Shown in pieces: positions 790 to 43,233 of a stretch of DNA of 64,000 nt. Each line of letters begins with the position of its first letter. Position 1 is the stretch's first letter. Below the pieces are notes generated by a model, which was given only the letters and a program-made list of their open reading frames with translations, had not been told where the DNA came from and did no database searches. Source of the DNA: an uncultured Lachnospiraceae bacterium (GTDB taxonomy: Bacteria; Bacillota; Clostridia; Lachnospirales; Lachnospiraceae); contig CATNCF010000010.1 in assembly GCA_950097145.1 (NCBI GenBank), forward strand, positions 536 to 64,535. The letters are read 5' to 3'. A program made the translations under genes and the position numbers.

Positions 790-2853
790 CTATTTTTGGA
801 TTTTTTTCTTACCGGCAAATATTTTATTTGATGCAATCTTATTAATCTTGCCATTGTTATATACCCACACGCCATACCCGGCCTGCTTATTCTTTGCATT
901 AATCGTGTTATAACTCAGTATTTTTATTTTGCTTCCGGGAGCATTTACATTAACACCCGCTTTTTTCTTGGAAGTAAAGGTGTTTTTATTAGACGGGGTG
1001 CCGCCTACCGTACCGGCATAACCTTTAGAACTTACAATTAATGCATATTCTTTCGCTGCTACAACTGTGTTTTTGTGGACAGCGTCTACTTTTCCTTTAT
1101 TTGTGATAATAATTCCTCTTAATCCGGCTGTGATTTTATTCCCTGCGATTTTCTTTACGCTTCCTCCAAATATATTAATTCCGGTACCTCCTGCCGCGCC
1201 GGAAGTGTCAATGGTATTGCTTAAAATTGACGTAACTTTTGCGTTCGGTGCAATTTTCAGGGAAGAGCACTTTGAAATAGCCGGGGAACTAATCTTATTG
1301 TAAGACAACTCTTTCACTGCCGTTTTTTTGCCAGAAATAATAATTGTTTCTTTCTTGCCGGACTTAAAGGTATTCCCGCCTTTTTTGCCGCCCACAGTTG
1401 TAACCGTTCCGCCTGTCGCTACGTATAATGCGCTGTCATTCTTAGCGGTTACTTTATTGGAACGCAAATTTGGCGCCTTGCCGGAAACCGTTATGGTAAT
1501 GCCACGGTAATCGGATTTAATATCATTCCCTGTCAGATTTTTCAAAACACTTTTTTGCGCAAGAGCCACTCCGTCCCTCTTCGATGTTATCTTATTATTC
1601 AAAACATCCGTGACAGAAGATTTCTCCAGGATAAAAATGCCGCGTCCATTTGCTTTTATGGTATTATTACTTATAACTGCATTAGAAACAGGCTCATCTT
1701 TCTTTACTTTGTTTTTCTTATAACTGCTGCTGGCAATCATAATGCCGTCTTCTCTGGCTTTTGATATTGTGTTGTCTGCAACAGTAACCCCTTTTCCACC
1801 ATAAACCCGGATAGGAGTCGCATAATTACCGTTAATGGTGTTATTCGTTATTTTACAATTGTCAAAGGCGAATGTTCTGATCGCACATCCGGCAACTGTA
1901 GAATTAGAATACAGAAACTTATTATTTGAAATCTCTACATTTTTGGTGTGTGTTCCAGCAATAGAATGATGATCTCCCACACCGCAGGGATAATCCTTAA
2001 ATGTACAGCCAGTAACTATAACATTTTCACAAACAGTATTATCTCCGTCAAAGGCTGCCGCCCAGTCTTCACCCTTTCCTGAAATATCAATTTCCAAAGC
2101 CTCTTTGGAAATATATTTATCATATTCATCCTTGGTTTCCTGGAACAGGTATCCGTCAAATGTACAATTTGAAACTGTAATATCCTTGCACCCGTTAAAT
2201 TCCAGGAGATGATTTGTGCCGTTATGCAGGAATGTAACATCTGCAACCCTTATCCCACGGGCATGTCCAAACGTTATCAGATTCGCCCCAGTCTTTGTAT
2301 TTTTATTCCCGTCAATGGTTCCGTTTTTTAATGTAATATCATGAGACAAATCATATCCGCCTTTTACATTAGATACACCATTGCCATTTTTACGGTTGCC
2401 ATTTTTATCACAGTTTGCAAAAATATTGGTTCCGGTGGTTTTACCAATCATATTTTTTGTAGCCTGCAGGGTATTGCCGCCTAAGTCAATCTCTGTCATA
2501 GAACGAATGTTCAGCGTACCAAAAGGACTGTCAGAAGACGAGTATCCAACTGGGAACACACAAGATTTTGCCCCCTTGTCAGAAACCAATTCTATATGCA
2601 GAGTATACTTTTCATTGGAATCTGCCGCTTCCAGTGCATTACGAATTTTGGTATAATTGGCATAGTCAGAATTCTTAGCTGTAGATAAGGAAACTCTAAT
2701 ATACACATCTGTATCTGTTGTCCTATTCTTATCAACCGCATAAAAATCTGTATCTTCCTGAACCGCAGCATCTGCTTCAGCGGCATTCGAAAACCAAAAC
2801 AGACCTATTACAAGAAAAAATGCCAGAACCTTAACCGAAAAAAATTGTTTCAT
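790..2853 (-). CDS. Secreted right-handed parallel beta-helix protein (pectin-lyase-like fold)
   Basis: Start moved to MKQFFS (RBS GGAGGT); signal peptide ending AEA/ADA; many I-x-x-N-x-I/F repeats; Lys-rich C-terminal half. Confidence 0.75.
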   Translation of the reverse strand: MKQFFSVKVLAFFLVIGLFWFSNAAEADAAVQEDTDFYAVDKNRTTDTDVYIRVSLSTAKNSDYANYTKIRNALEAADSNEKYTLHIELVSDKGAKSCVFPVGYSSSDSPFGTLNIRSMTEIDLGGNTLQATKNMIGKTTGTNIFANCDKNGNRKNGNGVSNVKGGYDLSHDITLKNGTIDGNKNTKTGANLITFGHARGIRVADVTFLHNGTNHLLEFNGCKDITVSNCTFDGYLFQETKDEYDKYISKEALEIDISGKGEDWAAAFDGDNTVCENVIVTGCTFKDYPCGVGDHHSIAGTHTKNVEISNNKFLYSNSTVAGCAIRTFAFDNCKITNNTINGNYATPIRVYGGKGVTVADNTISKAREDGIMIASSSYKKNKVKKDEPVSNAVISNNTIKANGRGIFILEKSSVTDVLNNKITSKRDGVALAQKSVLKNLTGNDIKSDYRGITITVSGKAPNLRSNKVTAKNDSALYVATGGTVTTVGGKKGGNTFKSGKKETIIISGKKTAVKELSYNKISSPAISKCSSLKIAPNAKVTSILSNTIDTSGAAGGTGINIFGGSVKKIAGNKITAGLRGIIITNKGKVDAVHKNTVVAAKEYALIVSSKGYAGTVGGTPSNKNTFTSKKKAGVNVNAPGSKIKILSYNTINAKNKQAGYGVWVYNNGKINKIASNKIFAGKKKIQK

Positions 2854-2927
2854 ACTTTTACCTCCCTTTCCCTTCGCTGATGCACAGACATCCATCAGCG
2901 CTCCCTTGATATTCGAAGAACTGGTTT

Positions 2928-3992
2928 TTATTTTACCTCTCTGGTCCAGCCATATTTGTCTTCTACGTTTCCCCACTGGATTCCTGTCAGATAATCGTAC
3001 AATTTCTGAGTCAGTTCTCCAATTTTAAAATCATTTACAGTAACTATATCATCCTTATACATAAACTCTCCTACCGGTGAAATCACTGCTGCTGTTCCTG
3101 TTCCGAAGGCTTCCTCCAGACTTCCGTCATGCCCTGCTTTCATCAGATCATCTACTGATAAATGCGTTTCATTTACTTTATAGCCCCAGTCTTTCAAAAT
3201 ATGGATAATCGAATCTCTGGTAACCCCTGGCAGGACGGTTCCTTCTATAGGAGCTGTATAAATTTCACCATTGATTTTAAACATGATGTTCATAGTGCCA
3301 ACTTCTTCCACGTACTTTCTGTTTACGCCGTCCAGCCAGAGCACCTGCGTACAGCCCTTCTCTTCAGCCCTCACCTGGCCTAAAATAGAAGCCGCGTAAT
3401 TGCCTCCGCATTTGGTATCTCCGGTTCCTCCTTTCACTGCACGAACCAATTCGTCTTCTACCAGAATTTTTACCGGATTAATGCCCTCAGGATAATATGC
3501 CCCCACTGGGCAGCAGATTACCATAAATTTATAAGAAACTGCCATATGAACGCCCAGGGCTGATTCCGTTGCAAACACAAAAGGACGGATATAAAGGGAA
3601 GTTCCAGGCTCAGAAGGAATCCAATCTTTCTCTATCTTAACCAGTTCCTCCACAGCTTCCACAAACAGTTCCTCTGGCACTCCCGGCATACACAGTCTTG
3701 TATTCGAGTTAATCATTCTCCTTGCATTCATTTCCGGACGGAACAATAATATCTTGTCTTCCTTGGTACGATATGCTTTCAGTCCTTCAAAAGTCTCCTG
3801 GGCATAGTGCAGGGTCACACAGGAGGGACTGATTTCCACCGGCCCATAAGGTTCAATCCTGGCGTCATGCCAGCCTGTGCCTTTATCCCAGTCCATTACA
3901 AACATATAATCCGTCATATACTTGCCAAATCCCAGATTACTCTGGTCTGGTTTCTCTTTTAATACATCTCTTTTTACAAACTTGATATCCAT
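2928..3992 (-). CDS. ilvE: Branched-chain amino acid aminotransferase
   Basis: LHYAQETFEGLKAY, LFRP, YIRP, KCGGNY (PLP Lys), LPGVTR, GTGTAA motifs; start at MDIKF with GGAGG RBS. Confidence 0.95.
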   Translation of the reverse strand: MDIKFVKRDVLKEKPDQSNLGFGKYMTDYMFVMDWDKGTGWHDARIEPYGPVEISPSCVTLHYAQETFEGLKAYRTKEDKILLFRPEMNARRMINSNTRLCMPGVPEELFVEAVEELVKIEKDWIPSEPGTSLYIRPFVFATESALGVHMAVSYKFMVICCPVGAYYPEGINPVKILVEDELVRAVKGGTGDTKCGGNYAASILGQVRAEEKGCTQVLWLDGVNRKYVEEVGTMNIMFKINGEIYTAPIEGTVLPGVTRDSIIHILKDWGYKVNETHLSVDDLMKAGHDGSLEEAFGTGTAAVISPVGEFMYKDDIVTVNDFKIGELTQKLYDYLTGIQWGNVEDKYGWTREVK

Positions 3993-28289: not shown

Positions 28290-29483
28290 TTATTTTAAAA
28301 CCAGCGCTTCTGTCTCTCTTGCAATTGCAAGCTCTTCATTGGTAGGCAGGCAAATGACTGTCACCTTGGAATTTGGTGTGGAGATAATTGTCTCCAAGCC
28401 ATGCACCTCATTTGCCTTTTCATCCAGTTCAACCCCCAGATAACCCAGATAATCACAGATGCCTTTTCTGGTGTTGGGGCCGTTTTCCCCTACCCCTGCG
28501 GTAAAACAGATTACATCCACACCGTTCATAGCTGCAGTGTATGCGCCTACATATTTTGCCGCACGATAGATATACGTATTAAGAGCGCGGATTCCTGCGT
28601 GGTCATTTTTCTCTGCCGCATCTTCCAAATCCCTGAAATCACTGGAAATATGGGACAATCCCTGTACTCCTGATTTCTTATTCAGTATATCCATCATGCC
28701 TTCCAAATCCAGGTTTTCCTTCTTCGCAATATATTCCATAGCTCCAGGGTCAATATCTCCGGAACGTGTTCCCATAATCAGTCCTTCTAAAGGTGTGAGT
28801 CCCATGGATGTATCAATGGATTTACCATTTTTCACCGCACAGATCGAAGCTCCGTTGCCAAGATGGCATACAATCGTCTTCAATTCTTCGCAGGGTTTTC
28901 CAACAATCTCAGCGGCCCGCTTAGACACGTAACTGTGGGAGGTGCCATGGAATCCATACCTTCTCACTTTATATTTCTCATAGTAATCATAATCAATGCC
29001 GTACAGATAAGCTTCCTCCGGCATAGTTTGATGGAATGCGGTATCAAATACTCCCACCATAGGCACATTGGGCATCAATTCCTGACATGCACGGATTCCA
29101 ATAAGATTTGCCGGATTGTGCAGAGGCGCCAGTTCGTTACATTCTTCAATAACCTTCAGCACTTCTTCATTTAAAATTGTAGATGACGCAAATTTTTCTC
29201 CGCCATGAACCACTCTGTGTCCCACTGCCCCAATTTCATCCAGGCTCTTTAATGCGCCGGTCTTAGGGTTTACCAGTGCATCCAGCACCATCTGGATTGC
29301 CTGCTTATGCGTGGGCATATCAGCATCCGTAATTTCTTTCTCACCGCCCGCTTTCTGATACACCAGTCTGCCGTCCAGACCGATTCTCTCACAAAGCCCT
29401 TTTGCCAGTACTGCCTCCGTATCTGAATCAATCACCTGGTATTTTAAAGATGAGCTTCCACAATTGACTACTAATATATTCAT
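28290..29483 (-). CDS. ackA: Acetate kinase
   Basis: NCGSSSLK, GHRVVHGG, APLHNP, FDTAFH, YGFHGTSH, HLGNGAS, TNEE. Confidence 0.97.
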   Translation of the reverse strand: MNILVVNCGSSSLKYQVIDSDTEAVLAKGLCERIGLDGRLVYQKAGGEKEITDADMPTHKQAIQMVLDALVNPKTGALKSLDEIGAVGHRVVHGGEKFASSTILNEEVLKVIEECNELAPLHNPANLIGIRACQELMPNVPMVGVFDTAFHQTMPEEAYLYGIDYDYYEKYKVRRYGFHGTSHSYVSKRAAEIVGKPCEELKTIVCHLGNGASICAVKNGKSIDTSMGLTPLEGLIMGTRSGDIDPGAMEYIAKKENLDLEGMMDILNKKSGVQGLSHISSDFRDLEDAAEKNDHAGIRALNTYIYRAAKYVGAYTAAMNGVDVICFTAGVGENGPNTRKGICDYLGYLGVELDEKANEVHGLETIISTPNSKVTVICLPTNEELAIARETEALVLK

Positions 29484-29536
29484 TTTTTTCTCCTTTCCTG
29501 TGCTCTTCCTAACAGGATTCTGCAACCTTTTTATCC

Positions 29537-29565
29537 ATTATAAACCAATTTTTTTTTGTGTACAA
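29537..29565 (-). promoter_or_regulatory. SigmaA promoter of ackA
   Basis: Minus strand TTGTAC-N17-TATAAT. Confidence 0.65.
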
Positions 29566-29676
29566 GGGGATATTTTGAAAAGCCGGCATTCGAAACTGCC
29601 TCCGCCAATATTTTTTCCACAAATTGATAAAAGTATTTTTTCTGCTCTGCTTTTCATTGTGATGTTTTTTAAAAAA

Positions 29677-29823
29677 AAGGTGCAAAGTCTTAATTAATAG
29701 TACCTCGCTGCAAGCGCAGTGTATTTACACACTCGCAGCATTCGTCAAACAGCTTGTAAACATGGCTATTTTCCTAAGTGCCCTGCGGATACATTACTCG
29801 TGGGAATAAAGACTTTACACCTT
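29677..29823 (-). repeat. 147-bp IR-bounded structured element forming the 3' end of cassette 1
   Basis: AAGGTGCAAAGTCT ... AGACTTTACACCTT (13/14 IR), internal GC hairpins, T8 tail on the minus strand. Confidence 0.75.
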
Positions 29824-30121
29824 AATTTGTTTGATTATTTCGTTGTTTTATTCTTTGATAATATCAATGTCTATTAAATTCACACCTATGACATTTAATA
29901 ATGCTTTCAAAGAAAGATAATCCGTTTTTAACTCTGCGTATGTTTTTGTCGCGTTTTCTTCCTTTGCAACCATCATATATCGCTGAACTTTTTTAAATTG
30001 TTCAATAGCATCTTTTGCTATTTCTGCATTACTTGGCATACAATCACCGTCCTTTTATATGCTCTGTTTCTATGATGATCTCATTATAGCAATAAGGGGT
30101 TCTGGTGTAAAGTCTTTATTC
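29804..30121 (-). mobile_element. Small-gene cassette 1 bounded by a perfect 18-bp inverted repeat
   Basis: GAATAAAGACTTTACACC (29804-29821) and GGTGTAAAGTCTTTATTC (30104-30121) enclose promoter, leader and ORF; mobility is inferred. Confidence 0.55.
29848..30039 (-). CDS. 63-aa helical hypothetical protein (cassette 1 payload)
   Basis: RBS AAGGACGGTGA, promoter TTTACA-N17-TATAAT (30083-30111), downstream terminator-like IR. Confidence 0.8.
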   Translation of the reverse strand: MPSNAEIAKDAIEQFKKVQRYMMVAKEENATKTYAELKTDYLSLKALLNVIGVNLIDIDIIKE

Positions 30122-30122
30122 A

Positions 30123-30218
30123 GTTATCAAATATTTTTCCCCACAAGCTATAGAAAAAGCAAAGGATTTAGGCGTAAAACTTTGGGACAGAGATAGACTA
30201 AATGAAATAATTGGGTAA
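30123..30218 (+). pseudogene. 3' fragment of an Mrr-type restriction endonuclease gene
   Basis: Manual translation VIKYFSPQAIEKAKDLGVKLWDRDRLNEIIG-stop resembles the Mrr_cat C-terminus (YFT-QA---A----V-LWDR--L); no start codon. Confidence 0.55.
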
Positions 30219-30330
30219 GGCAAAATTGCCCCTATAAAACCAACTTCTAAAACAATGCAATAAGGCTTATGATTAAAAAACGGAATGACTTAGGCTATGA
30301 GAAGAACCGTAAGGGGGATGGGCAGGCGGC

Positions 30331-30376
30331 AAAAAGGTGCAAAGCCTTAATAATTCAATAACAACTTTACACCTTT
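30331..30376 (-). terminator. Terminator of cassette 2, built from the cassette IR
   Basis: Minus strand AAAGGTGTAAAG-N20-CTTTGCACCTTT-TT. Confidence 0.75.
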
Positions 30377-30662
30377 GGTTTTTAGGTTCTTTATGCAGTT
30401 ATAGCTGACTGTCTGTCAATGGCGGTTTCTGATAAAGTTTGCGCTCAACAAATTTCTTTTCAAGTGCAAGCTGCTTTTTAACCGCTTCAATGTCATTTTC
30501 TTCTGTAATCATCTCAAGCCGTTCGATTAGTTCAAGCTGATCCAGTAGATAGCCATTATATTCTTTTTCATTATTTGGCATACAATCACCTGCTTTCTAT
30601 AGCCTGTTTATATGGTAGTTTTATTATACCAGACACAAGGTTTAGGTGTAAAGTTTTTATTC
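30356..30662 (-). mobile_element. Small-gene cassette 2 bounded by a 16/18 inverted repeat
   Basis: CAATAACAACTTTACACC (30356-30373) and GGTGTAAAGTTTTTATTC (30645-30662); mobility is inferred. Confidence 0.5.
30399..30581 (-). CDS. 60-aa charged helical hypothetical protein (cassette 2 payload)
   Basis: RBS AAAGCAGGTGA, promoter TTTACA-N18-(TGG)TATAAT (30623-30652), downstream terminator. Confidence 0.8.
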   Translation of the reverse strand: MPNNEKEYNGYLLDQLELIERLEMITEENDIEAVKKQLALEKKFVERKLYQKPPLTDSQL

Positions 30663-31142
30663 ATATTTTGATGTCAATCGTTACATTTACAAATATATGG
30701 GGATTGAGTGTACTATTACATGCAATACTAAATAGCATATTGTATGCATATAAATTACAACTATTCAATGCTACGACAAATTCTAATATATGGTTTATAC
30801 TTGCCCAGCCGTGACATGATACATTTACCATTGTTTGAACAGATTCAATGAAATTATAGTTTTAAGATACTGGTTTAGAATGTCCCTGTGACGCTCCGTA
30901 AGGCGCATACAAGGGTTTATTGTTGATTAGTATAGGAGATAAAATAATGCTGAAAATGATAGATTCAGACACTAAAAAACCCGCAACTGACGAATTGGTT
31001 TTATCAGTTATGGACTTTTGATAATGTCCAAATATTTAATTAAATGATGTGAAGGATCATTCCTTTCTTACTGCTCACAAAATAAGAACTTATATTCTGG
31101 TTACCTAACTTCTGAAACCCTTATTTTTATCAGCTTTATAAA

Positions 31143-31215
31143 AGCTGCTGACGGGAATCGGACCCGTGACCTCCGCACTACCAATGCGACGCTCTACCGA
31201 CTGAGCCACAGCAGC
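31143..31215 (-). tRNA. tRNA-Thr (GGT)
   Basis: Cloverleaf GCTGCTG acceptor stem, anticodon loop TT-GGT-AG; CCA not encoded; upstream TTGACA-N17-TATATT (31251-31279). Confidence 0.95.
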
Positions 31216-31298
31216 GTTTCCTGTTGTCTGGATATCCAAACGACTTGTTTAATATACTATATTTTTATATAATTGTCAATTATTTTTTACAAATTTTT

Positions 31299-31907
31299 TC
31301 ATACTTTTTTAAGAATTTTTCCCCGAATGCGCTGCAGCGCATTGTCAATTGCTTTTGGTTCTTTTTCCAATTCCTCTGCAATCTGCCTGTAGTTCATCCC
31401 CCTGAAATATAGCTGCAGCACCTGCTGTTCAAAAGAACTCAAATTCTTTTTCAGCTTCTCCTGGACAGCCCTGGTATTCTCCTGGTCAATCAGAAGCTGT
31501 TCCGGATTGGCATTCTCAAAAGATTCCAGGATATCGAGGAGGGTTCCTTCTCCCTCCTGCCCCATCTCTGCATTCAGGGAAACATAAGTATTCAAAGGCT
31601 GGTGCTTTTTCCGCTGGGATGCCTCCACCGCGTGATAAATCTGTCTGGTAATACAAAGATCGGCAAAACGATAAAAAGAGACATCACGCTCCATCTGAAA
31701 ATCCCGGATAGCCTTAAACAGTCCAATCATTCCTTCCTGGATCAAATCATCTGTATCTCCCCCCATCAGAAACATGGCATTGGCACGTTTTCTCACCAGA
31801 TTCTTATACTTATCCATGATATAGTCTGTAATTTCCTCCTGACCGCAGCGAAGCTGCTCAATCAGGTCTTCATCTTTTATATTCTGATACTCTGTCTCTT
31901 TCTGCAA
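31299..31907 (-). CDS. sigH: RNA polymerase sigma factor SigH
   Basis: DDLIQEGMIGLFKAIRDF, RKKHQPLNTYVSL, KAIDNALQR; canonical position after cysS-mrnC-rlmB; TTG start. Confidence 0.92.
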   Translation of the reverse strand: MQKETEYQNIKDEDLIEQLRCGQEEITDYIMDKYKNLVRKRANAMFLMGGDTDDLIQEGMIGLFKAIRDFQMERDVSFYRFADLCITRQIYHAVEASQRKKHQPLNTYVSLNAEMGQEGEGTLLDILESFENANPEQLLIDQENTRAVQEKLKKNLSSFEQQVLQLYFRGMNYRQIAEELEKEPKAIDNALQRIRGKILKKV

Positions 31908-42291: not shown

Positions 42292-43092
42292 TTAATCTTC
42301 CCGCCTGCGCACCAGAACAATTTTGGTGATTCCATTGCTGGAATCATCTTTTCTGGTCTGCAGTTCCGGGAAAGATTCAATTAGTTTTCCAAACTTATGG
42401 AACCCATAATTCCGGCAGTCAAAATCTGAGTACAATTTCTGTATCATATTCCCCAGCTCTGACAAATACATCCATCCGTCCTCATCTGAATTTTCATCAA
42501 GCAGGGAAAATACCGTCTCTTTAATGGCACGCAGATTGGTAATAGGCTGCGCATCTTTGGGCTGTTCCCGGGGCAGGGCCCGTTCTGTGGGCACGCATCG
42601 GATCTCCTGCTTCCTGATTCTCTCCGGCATGTTCGCCTTTTGTTCCGGATGATGATTTTTATATAAAACGTCCAGTGTCTTAAACTGTTCACATGCCCTT
42701 ACAAAGGGTTTTGGCGTCTTGCTCTCTCCCATGCCGATGACCCGCTTGCCGGATTCTCTTAAGCGCATGGCAAGTTTGGTGAAATCACTGTCGGAAGATA
42801 CGATAATAAACCCGTCCACATCATTGGTATATAAAATGTCCATGGCATCAATAATCATGGCTGAATCGGAAGAATTCTTTCCCACGGTATAGCTGTACTG
42901 CTGGATAGGGGACAGGGAATTCTCCAAAAGGGAATCCTTCCAGGAATTCTTGGCGCTCGCCGTCCAGTCTCCGTAAATTCTGCGGATTGTAACATTTCCC
43001 AGTGTCTGGGCTTCTTTGGTGACAATTTCGATATATTTTGAAGACACATTTTCTGCGTCAATTAACAGGGCGTATTTATTTTCGTCTCTCAT
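42292..43092 (-). CDS. NYN (LabA/DUF88) domain protein with C-terminal OST-HTH/LOTUS domain
   Basis: LLIDAEN, RIYGDW, GKNSSD, SSDSDF acidic PIN-like motifs; FDCRNYGFHKF. Confidence 0.9.
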   Translation of the reverse strand: MRDENKYALLIDAENVSSKYIEIVTKEAQTLGNVTIRRIYGDWTASAKNSWKDSLLENSLSPIQQYSYTVGKNSSDSAMIIDAMDILYTNDVDGFIIVSSDSDFTKLAMRLRESGKRVIGMGESKTPKPFVRACEQFKTLDVLYKNHHPEQKANMPERIRKQEIRCVPTERALPREQPKDAQPITNLRAIKETVFSLLDENSDEDGWMYLSELGNMIQKLYSDFDCRNYGFHKFGKLIESFPELQTRKDDSSNGITKIVLVRRRED

Positions 43093-43148
43093 GTTCTGTT
43101 CCTTTCCCAATGTCTCAAATTCATAAATCAATTACGTACTGCACCCAG

Positions 43149-43233
43149 CATACAATTATCTGCTTGCTGTATACACAGCTTATACAGTAGATTTATTATA
43201 CCAATAAGCATTTTGGGTGTAAAGCCTTTATTC
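43149..43233 (-). promoter_or_regulatory. Third copy of the cassette IR/promoter/leader module, upstream of the NYN gene
   Basis: GGTGTAAAGCCTTTATTC (17/18 to cassette 1), TTTACA-N17-TATAAT, 43-nt leader ending AAGCAGATAATTGT-ATG. Confidence 0.75.

Follow-up and report, generated by a model that had tools for sequence, protein, structure and literature searches.

Self-expressing small-gene units in a Lachnospiraceae chromosome with a promoter box that recurs, inverted, in the terminator

A 64,000-nt stretch of the genome of an uncultured Lachnospiraceae bacterium (assembly GCA_950097145.1, contig CATNCF010000010.1, positions 536 to 64,535; referred to as the window) carries two short neighbouring units, U1 and U2, on its minus strand. 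Each unit has its own promoter, a single small open reading frame (ORF) and a terminator hairpin. The sequence around the -35 box (arm A) returns in inverted form as the 5' arm of the hairpin (arm B), whose partner is the hairpin 3' arm (arm C). We lean, by a modest measure, towards explaining U1 and U2 as self-expressing small-gene units that are similar to the PeSL cassettes of T4-like phages and have a three-arm promoter/terminator design. A more tentative model is that the three arms act as an RNA switch, in which the terminator would respond specifically to transcripts from the unit's own promoter.

The original prediction described two minus-strand units of identical layout with inverted repeats matching at 18/18 and 16/18 positions. 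This layout is confirmed, with the correction that a 107-nt insert occupies the hairpin loop of U1. Both units follow the plan of arm A with the -35 box, TGnTATAAT, a strong Shine-Dalgarno sequence, ORF, arm B, arm C and a U-run. Their parts are as follows.

30662-30645, minus strand: U2 arm A, GAATAAAAACTTTACACC, containing the -35 box TTTACA at 30652-30647
30628-30623, minus strand: U2 -10 box TATAAT with TG extension (TGgTATAAT), 18-nt spacer to the -35 box
30598-30585, minus strand: U2 extended Shine-Dalgarno sequence, AGAAAGCAGGTGAT, then TGT and ATG
30581-30399, minus strand: U2 ORF, 60 aa, type-2 family (MPxNEKEYNG...ERKLYQKPPL), predicted helical hairpin
30373-30356, minus strand: U2 arm B, the terminator 5' arm plus the first part of the loop, inverted copy of arm A at 16/18
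30344-30336, minus strand: U2 arm C, CTTTGCACC, with a U-run of five at 30335-30331
30121-30104, minus strand: U1 arm A, GAATAAAGACTTTACACC, containing the -35 box TTTACA at 30111-30106
30088-30083, minus strand: U1 -10 box TATAAT with TG extension (TGcTATAAT), 17-nt spacer to the -35 box
30039-29848, minus strand: U1 ORF, 63 aa, type-1 family (MPSNAEIAKD...GVNLIDIDxIKE), predicted helical hairpin
29821-29804, minus strand: U1 arm B, perfect inverted copy of arm A (18/18)
29698-29804, minus strand: copy of a dispersed repeat of about 105-107 nt in the U1 hairpin loop, overlapping the last base of arm B
29687-29679, minus strand: U1 arm C, CTTTGCACC, then eight U; arm C and U-run together span 29687-29671

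In a promoter scan over 1.9 kb, U1 and U2 each scored 11/12 with a TG extension and were among the four top-scoring sites; the only other site at 11/12 was a promoter-like one upstream of tRNA-Thr. The U2 Shine-Dalgarno sequence is complementary at 13 of 14 positions to what we take, from general knowledge, to be the usual 3' tail of 16S rRNA, the rRNA itself being absent from the assembly. U1 has the ribosome site GGTGAT, 3 nt before its ATG. Such a long Shine-Dalgarno sequence is also found outside the units, three of its seven copies in the genome preceding ordinary genes, and this share of the leader similarity is therefore simply that of a strong ribosome site. The B:C hairpin of U2 has a 14-bp stem (-16.8 kcal/mol), a 20-nt loop and five following U residues and qualifies as an intrinsic terminator. 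In U1, the dispersed-repeat insert separates arms B and C, interrupting the terminator stem, and supplies the last base of the perfect 18-mer. An Rfam search of 29300-31300 matched the tRNA only. Taken together, we are highly confident that U1 and U2 are autonomous one-gene transcription units of a common family, with a near-consensus housekeeping-type promoter carrying an extended -10 box, a very long Shine-Dalgarno sequence and an intrinsic terminator.

The shared motif is found across the genome and its relatives and is thus not confined to this locus. Within the window the 18-mer occurs six times at up to 3 mismatches, against 0.08 occurrences expected. A promoter-leader profile search of the genome (G000; G, C and L numbers denote genomes, contigs and loci) returned strong copies on C10 (three, one of them at 43233-43128 of the window), C34, C25 and C1, and weaker copies on C60, C16 and C22. 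For comparison, 49 species genomes of the genus, 301 genomes of the family (one per genus) and, in the search for hairpin-promoter combinations, 401 genomes were used. U2 DNA matches 22 of the 49 genus genomes, with at most 10 matches per genome, in the form of entire units, the promoter-leader only or the hairpin only. The hairpin GGTGYAAAG-N8-38-CTTTRCACC is present in 19 of the 301 family genomes (control pattern: 3), and its loop is conserved too. Inverted A/B pairs 250-280 nt apart were found seven times in six of the 49 genus genomes and not at all with the control; all seven surround a -10 box, a Shine-Dalgarno sequence and an ATG. The carriers are mouse-gut Lachnospiraceae, among them Acetatifactor, Schaedlerella, Eubacterium plexicaudatum ASF492 and Otoolea muris; type-1 genes occur in the cultured strains Schaedlerella arabinosiphila DSM 106076, E. 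plexicaudatum ASF492 and O. muris DSM 111138.

The prediction of a reusable expression chassis is borne out, since the same promoter-leader and hairpin flank at least three small-ORF families here and more in other genera. In this genome, the genes with this promoter type comprise type-2 members on C25, C22 and C60, type-1 members on C1 and C32, and a third family of 40-43 aa on C34 and C16. In other genera, arm A, a GGTGA-type ribosome site and the hairpin flank other ORFs of 45, 57, 56-79 and 106-112 aa. The promoter-leader comes in two blocks. Block 1 has TTTACA, 17-18 nt, TATAAT and its own leader type, whereas block 2 has an AGACTTTRCA box placed 5 nt nearer a TATACT and a different, hairpin-forming leader. 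In a cross-tabulation, block 1 and the hairpin each occur with all three ORF families and block 2 with two.

The modules have also been re-assorted among units, in line with the exchangeable small proteins that had been proposed. The type-3 ORF of this genome stands behind block 2 and has no hairpin, whereas in G059 an ORF of about 85% DNA identity stands behind block 1 and is followed by the hairpin; the similarity spans Shine-Dalgarno sequence to stop codon, and the two promoter blocks are unrelated. A second case is the window copy mentioned above, named U3:

43128-43233, minus strand: U3, a promoter-leader block with a 7-codon remnant of a type-1 ORF, before an NYN/OST-HTH gene at 42292-43092

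The U3 block, a separate insertion, is absent from the three nearest relatives and occurs in this genome only, so that it looks like a promoter captured by the NYN/OST-HTH gene. A DUF2164 gene of G009 likewise has this promoter. Units of G046 and G006 lie in different contexts and are 84% identical from arm A exactly to arm C and the T-run. We consider it likely that the promoter-leader and hairpin blocks are homologous between units carrying different ORFs and have been re-assorted by recombination.

At L001 (G000 C1:225145-225060, minus strand), a GC-rich hairpin and a U-run stand about 40 nt behind a promoter with arm A (TTTACA, 17 nt, TATCAT), without any ORF; this locus might encode a small RNA or represent a unit that has been emptied. 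Position 33800 of C4 in G000 is similar, with a promoter, a hairpin of the same family and no ORF. At about 1500-1530 of L007 (G000 C54), a box resembling arms A and C with TTTTT lies 3 nt upstream of the apparent 5' end of a group II intron (GTGCGCC...). Bacterial group II introns are in some cases inserted behind terminators, and the one here seems to have used a site of that kind.

The closest known system is the PeSL cassettes of T4-like phages (Arbiol et al. 2010, PMC2839356; Comeau et al. 2014, PMC4122927). PeSLs are likewise repeated modules with a strong sigma-70-type promoter, an AT-rich upstream tract, a Shine-Dalgarno sequence and a terminator stem-loop, and unrelated genes are swapped between the same modules, as at least three ORF families are flanked by common modules here. 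In contrast, the present units belong to Lachnospiraceae chromosomes, next to sigH, tRNA-Thr and ackA, and not to phages, the one viral match being a single viral contig with a type-2 gene. There are about 8-10 copies per genome against about 50 in PeSL, and promoter box and hairpin stand at opposite ends of the gene, whereas they are fused in PeSL. The promoter box is moreover an inverted copy of the terminator 5' arm that co-varies with it, a feature not found in the parts of the PeSL literature consulted, and this three-arm design is unusual. PeSL modules produce mini-circles by recombination, whereas here, with contigs only, neither mini-circles nor recombinants between units were directly seen, which counts against our reading. 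A general literature search returned no description of these units or of the promoter-box/terminator-arm layout.

Phage morons, known from Hendrix and colleagues, are independent promoter-gene-terminator units inserted between other genes. The units described here are similarly independent and placed between genes, but they are not in prophages and have homologous regulatory ends, which morons do not share.

The three arms are related in an unequal manner. Extended to about 21-27 nt, the arm A box is an inverted copy of arm B plus the first half of the loop and not of the arm C side; the distal 10 nt that match B do not occur in C. Arm A of U2 matches arm B of U1 (17/18) better than its own arm B (16/18), as for a consensus at the level of the family. 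Across the family, which is related by descent, the score of arms A and B from the same unit averages 17.6, compared with 11.5 when arms of different units are paired; a score of 12 is reached by 22 of 121 units and by none of 121 shuffled controls. The A-run variants AATAGAC, AATAAGAC, AATAAAGAC and AATAAAAGAC, as well as GGGGTTACAC in L198, are each matched in both arms of one unit. Several A-run and spacing variants co-occur within this one genome, and their matching within units speaks for cis pairing and against one common binding protein.

RNA folding with arm A included pairs A with B in both the minimum-free-energy and the centroid structures of U1 and U2, and for U1 none of 100 shuffled sequences folds as well (z = -3.6). 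The A:B duplex is the longer of the two pairings and, in 17 of the 21 units folded, has a higher stability than B:C. In the predicted read-through RNA, which includes arm A, B pairs with A in 14 of the 21, whereas in the predicted RNA from the unit's own promoter B pairs with C in all 21.

These relations suggest the switch outlined above. Arm A would lie just upstream of the transcription start, and since it overlaps the -35 box it is absent from the RNA that the unit itself initiates. In such RNA, arm B, as the terminator 5' arm, would be free to form the hairpin with arm C, the 3' arm, and transcription would terminate. RNA entering from upstream would contain arm A, which is complementary to B and could pair with it before C is made. 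Such RNA would either not be terminated or be cut at the long duplex, which would then be a processing site. The unit would thereby express itself without a polar effect on its neighbours. Four units do sit between close co-directional genes. At first count the three-arm units seemed to point away from neighbouring genes, but no bias was left under stricter counting.

By analogy, the proposal resembles attenuators and the fold-back inhibition of IS10/Tn10, which was reportedly described by Davis, Simons and Kleckner in 1985: a segment present only in transcripts started outside pairs with a downstream segment and alters the fate of the RNA, the three arms offering alternative pairings. Here, on the other hand, the competing arm overlaps the unit's own -35 box and is separated from its partner by about 280 nt across the whole ORF, and the target of the pairing would be a terminator and not a ribosome site.

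Several observations weigh against a switch of this kind. Seven of the 21 units retain the B:C hairpin even with arm A included, and the folding is purely thermodynamic over about 280 nt. The comparison of own and cross scores overstates the number of independent events, the units being related by descent, and differences between A and B that wobble pairing would tolerate show no excess once one recurrent site is removed. For about half of the units the gene upstream is divergent, a setting in which read-through would be improbable. In other genomes the type-1 genes mostly have other terminators, whose stems drift through compensating changes; most lack the hairpin and many lack arm A, and the three-arm design is thus not needed for the gene. 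Contigs of two RNA libraries span the A arms, although RNA libraries can hold DNA, and the four runs examined as contigs show no transcript starts, transcript ends or rare variants. An array model, in which the hairpin 3' arm doubles as the -35 box of the next promoter, was also rejected, with only 3 of the 401 genomes containing the arrangement and no clear gene behind any of them.

The same run contigs contain two skips, one of 100 nt at 30123-30224 in a single low-depth RNA contig and one of 585 nt with 29 foreign letters. Both probably derive from other strains or units.

The most serious competing explanation, in our view possible but doubtful, is that the arms are recombination boundaries only. 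Arms A and C, as direct repeats, would provide short homologies for the exchange, excision or insertion of small genes, and the A/B repeat would be a by-product of B pairing with C without any role in RNA. This is the documented mode of action of PeSLs (PMC2839356, PMC4122927). It agrees with the identity of the proximal 11 nt of arm A with arm C in many units and with the re-assorted modules and variable islets described here. Metagenome contigs also break at the hairpin, where the depth exceeds that of the neighbouring sequence more than 10-fold. The distal 10 nt of arm A, however, follow the loop side of B and not C, and the length variants are matched between A and B, which exchange between A and C does not explain. 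Composite hairpin-promoter motifs are rare (3 of 401 genomes), and the breaks in homology to relatives lie at about 30963 and 29575, away from the arms.

We regard as improbable that a common DNA-binding regulator recognizes the box of about 21-27 bp, TTGATAATTGAATAAAGACTTTACACC, as an operator at the promoter and, inverted, in the hairpin DNA, repressing or looping all units as one regulon. The box is conserved well past the -35 hexamer, occurs at two distances from the -10 box (12 nt and 17-18 nt) and precedes the unrelated NYN and DUF2164 genes, all as an operator might. Yet the spacing variants coexist in one genome while matching within each unit, which fits cis pairing better; the two half-sites in the hairpin lie 15-110 bp apart, and no regulator gene recurs beside the units.

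The original prediction also suggested mobilization of the integron, pdif or another recombinase type. This finds no support: in the neighbourhoods of 80 type-1 loci no gene recurs in more than six and no recombinase, transposase, invertase or regulator is recurrent, and homology to relatives continues unbroken at the arms. The related idea of a non-autonomous transposable cassette, similar to a mobile insertion cassette or a miniature inverted-repeat transposable element (MITE), has arms A and B as terminal inverted repeats and a transposase encoded elsewhere. In its favour, a passenger gene lies between inverted repeats of 18-33 bp, and the copies are dispersed in varied contexts and differ in presence between species. 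We nevertheless judge it very improbable. No target-site duplications were found at the units, the inserted segments exceed the unit and have ragged ends, and the copies are old and diverged instead of near-identical. The conserved homology continues past arm B through arm C and the T-run. A search of the 83%-complete genome for Y1 transposase genes, the one transposase family looked for, found none, and no transposase stands beside the 80 loci.

MIC231 of Bacillus cereus is a mobile insertion cassette, and the Correia elements of Neisseria have inverted repeats with promoter elements and form hairpins that are cut by RNase III when transcribed. As in such cassettes and MITEs, inverted repeats here bracket a short segment without transposase, and promoter elements lie in the repeat, which can form a duplex in RNA; the units differ in their low copy number, in the lack of target duplications and a matching transposase, in the age of their diverged copies and in extending past the right repeat. 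Integron cassettes with their attC sites share the small gene followed by an imperfect palindrome, part of which recurs at the 5' boundary, and the variable content. The present units, in contrast, have their own promoters and a 5' copy that is inverted and 18-27 nt long, compared with a 6-7-nt direct core site; no array was seen, and no integrase gene is nearby, intI as such not having been searched for.

Another of the original suggestions, that the segment between A and B is invertible and phase-variable, is hardly credible. The segment of about 300 bp does lie between inverted repeats, and with the -35 box inside the repeat the promoter would be rebuilt after inversion. No opposite-strand joint was found at the arms in the four runs, where contigs leave rare variants invisible. 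A hairpin followed by a -10 box, the signature of the inverted state, occurs in 3 of the 401 genomes, in none with a leader or ORF behind, so that no inverted-state unit was found; an invertase gene is not nearby. A scan of JGI metagenome contigs matched neither the normal nor the inverted U1 junction and so carries no weight either way.

One last possibility, that a single small gene was simply duplicated on the spot and has nothing in common with other loci, is refuted. In its favour, the units are adjacent and co-oriented, their proteins are probably distant paralogs of the same fold, and in G005, too, a type-1 gene comes after a type-2 gene, in one operon. Each ORF, however, is far more similar to genes of other genomes (80-95%) than to its neighbour, the motifs are also present on other contigs and in other species and genera, and the nearest relatives have neither unit at this site.

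The original prediction saw no obvious similarity between the two small proteins past MPxN, but that they are unrelated finds no support. Related clusters number 491 for the U2 protein and 399 for the U1 protein; identities are mostly 75-95%, all clusters are hypothetical, and neither family contains a Pfam domain. Both are predicted to be helical hairpins, with helices at residues 5-27 and 31-50 in the U2 protein (predicted local distance difference test score, pLDDT, 83) and at 4-27 and 31-51 in the U1 protein (pLDDT 87), and the turn of both sits on a common EEN/KEN motif. A direct comparison is weak (E = 0.088), and narrow profiles give 5% probability. With a broader type-2 profile, hhalign aligned 48 columns to type 1 with 64% probability and E = 6.6e-5, and some type-2 members also match the type-1 model. 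The two types thus have their fold, length, N-terminus and turn motif in common, and we regard them as probable ancient paralogs within one superfamily. Searches of eight small proteins against Pfam and PHROGs gave nothing above threshold, and the PDB sequence search, Foldseek and the ESM Atlas returned only generic helical hairpins or unnamed clusters. A type I toxin-antitoxin system was rejected, as the proteins are hydrophilic helical hairpins and not a small hydrophobic toxin, and, by reading of the sequences, no conserved antisense promoter lies opposite arm B.

The G005 operon (G005:C4, the same locus as L171, 1289-1684) consists of a type-2 gene, 25 nt and a type-1 gene behind a single arm A promoter. 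Its gene order is that of U2 and U1, which hints that both proteins work together. Proteins of the third family (40-43 aa, MTGKE...; L048 3074-3202 and L049 2989-3108) match SAM_DprA weakly (E = 5e-4) and by eye are like the helical hook of SinI/SinR. They may be small protein-binding regulators.

U1 and U2 lie in an islet bounded by tRNA-Thr (31215-31143) and the acetate kinase gene ackA (start near 29484). The original prediction placed them in a decayed islet beside a restriction-enzyme fragment; the islet is variable, and the fragment, a gene tail, is real. None of the findings here speaks for or against the conflict or defence role that it hinted at. G009 and G049, whose SigH is 90-91% identical, hold other genes in the slot; in G046 a type-1 unit directly follows the tRNA, and G019 has a 3' remnant with the hairpin. 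The islet is a general accessory-gene hotspot. In G050 (L085, about 1640-3855) the tRNA-Thr-adjacent slot contains genes for 124 and 611 aa of no known family. The C34 unit is likewise absent from the same site in G049, where unrelated sequence is in its place. No clean empty sites were found in the three nearest relatives; unrelated sequence replaces the units there, so that the insertion boundaries are unreadable. Beside U1, beginning 2 nt outside its arm A, is a further remnant:

30123-30215, plus strand: restriction-nuclease gene remnant, 31 codons, matching the last 29 positions of Mrr_cat (E = 0.0024)

The dispersed repeat within the U1 hairpin loop (about 105 nt) begins TTTATTCCCGCGAGCAATGTACCCGCAGGGCAC and has no Rfam match. 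Five other copies are present in the genome (G000):

C4:500-604, dispersed-repeat copy
C3:35994-36064, dispersed-repeat copy
C62:11364-11425, dispersed-repeat copy
C24:40095-40174, dispersed-repeat copy
C5:43350-43399, dispersed-repeat copy

The analysis indicates that gut Lachnospiraceae carry portable, self-expressing small-gene units whose products are called hypothetical or whose genes are missed by annotation pipelines. For two conserved protein families of about 60 residues, a promoter, a ribosome site and a terminator are thereby defined for study. Modular shuffling of the PeSL kind, known from T4-like phages, would likewise be seen in bacterial chromosomes. If the proposed switch is true, a strongly expressed gene could sit anywhere, even within an operon, without causing polarity, and portable small genes would have built-in insulation. 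Such a unit would be a natural terminator specific to transcripts of its own promoter, and would be of use for gene regulation and for insulated expression parts in gut Firmicutes.

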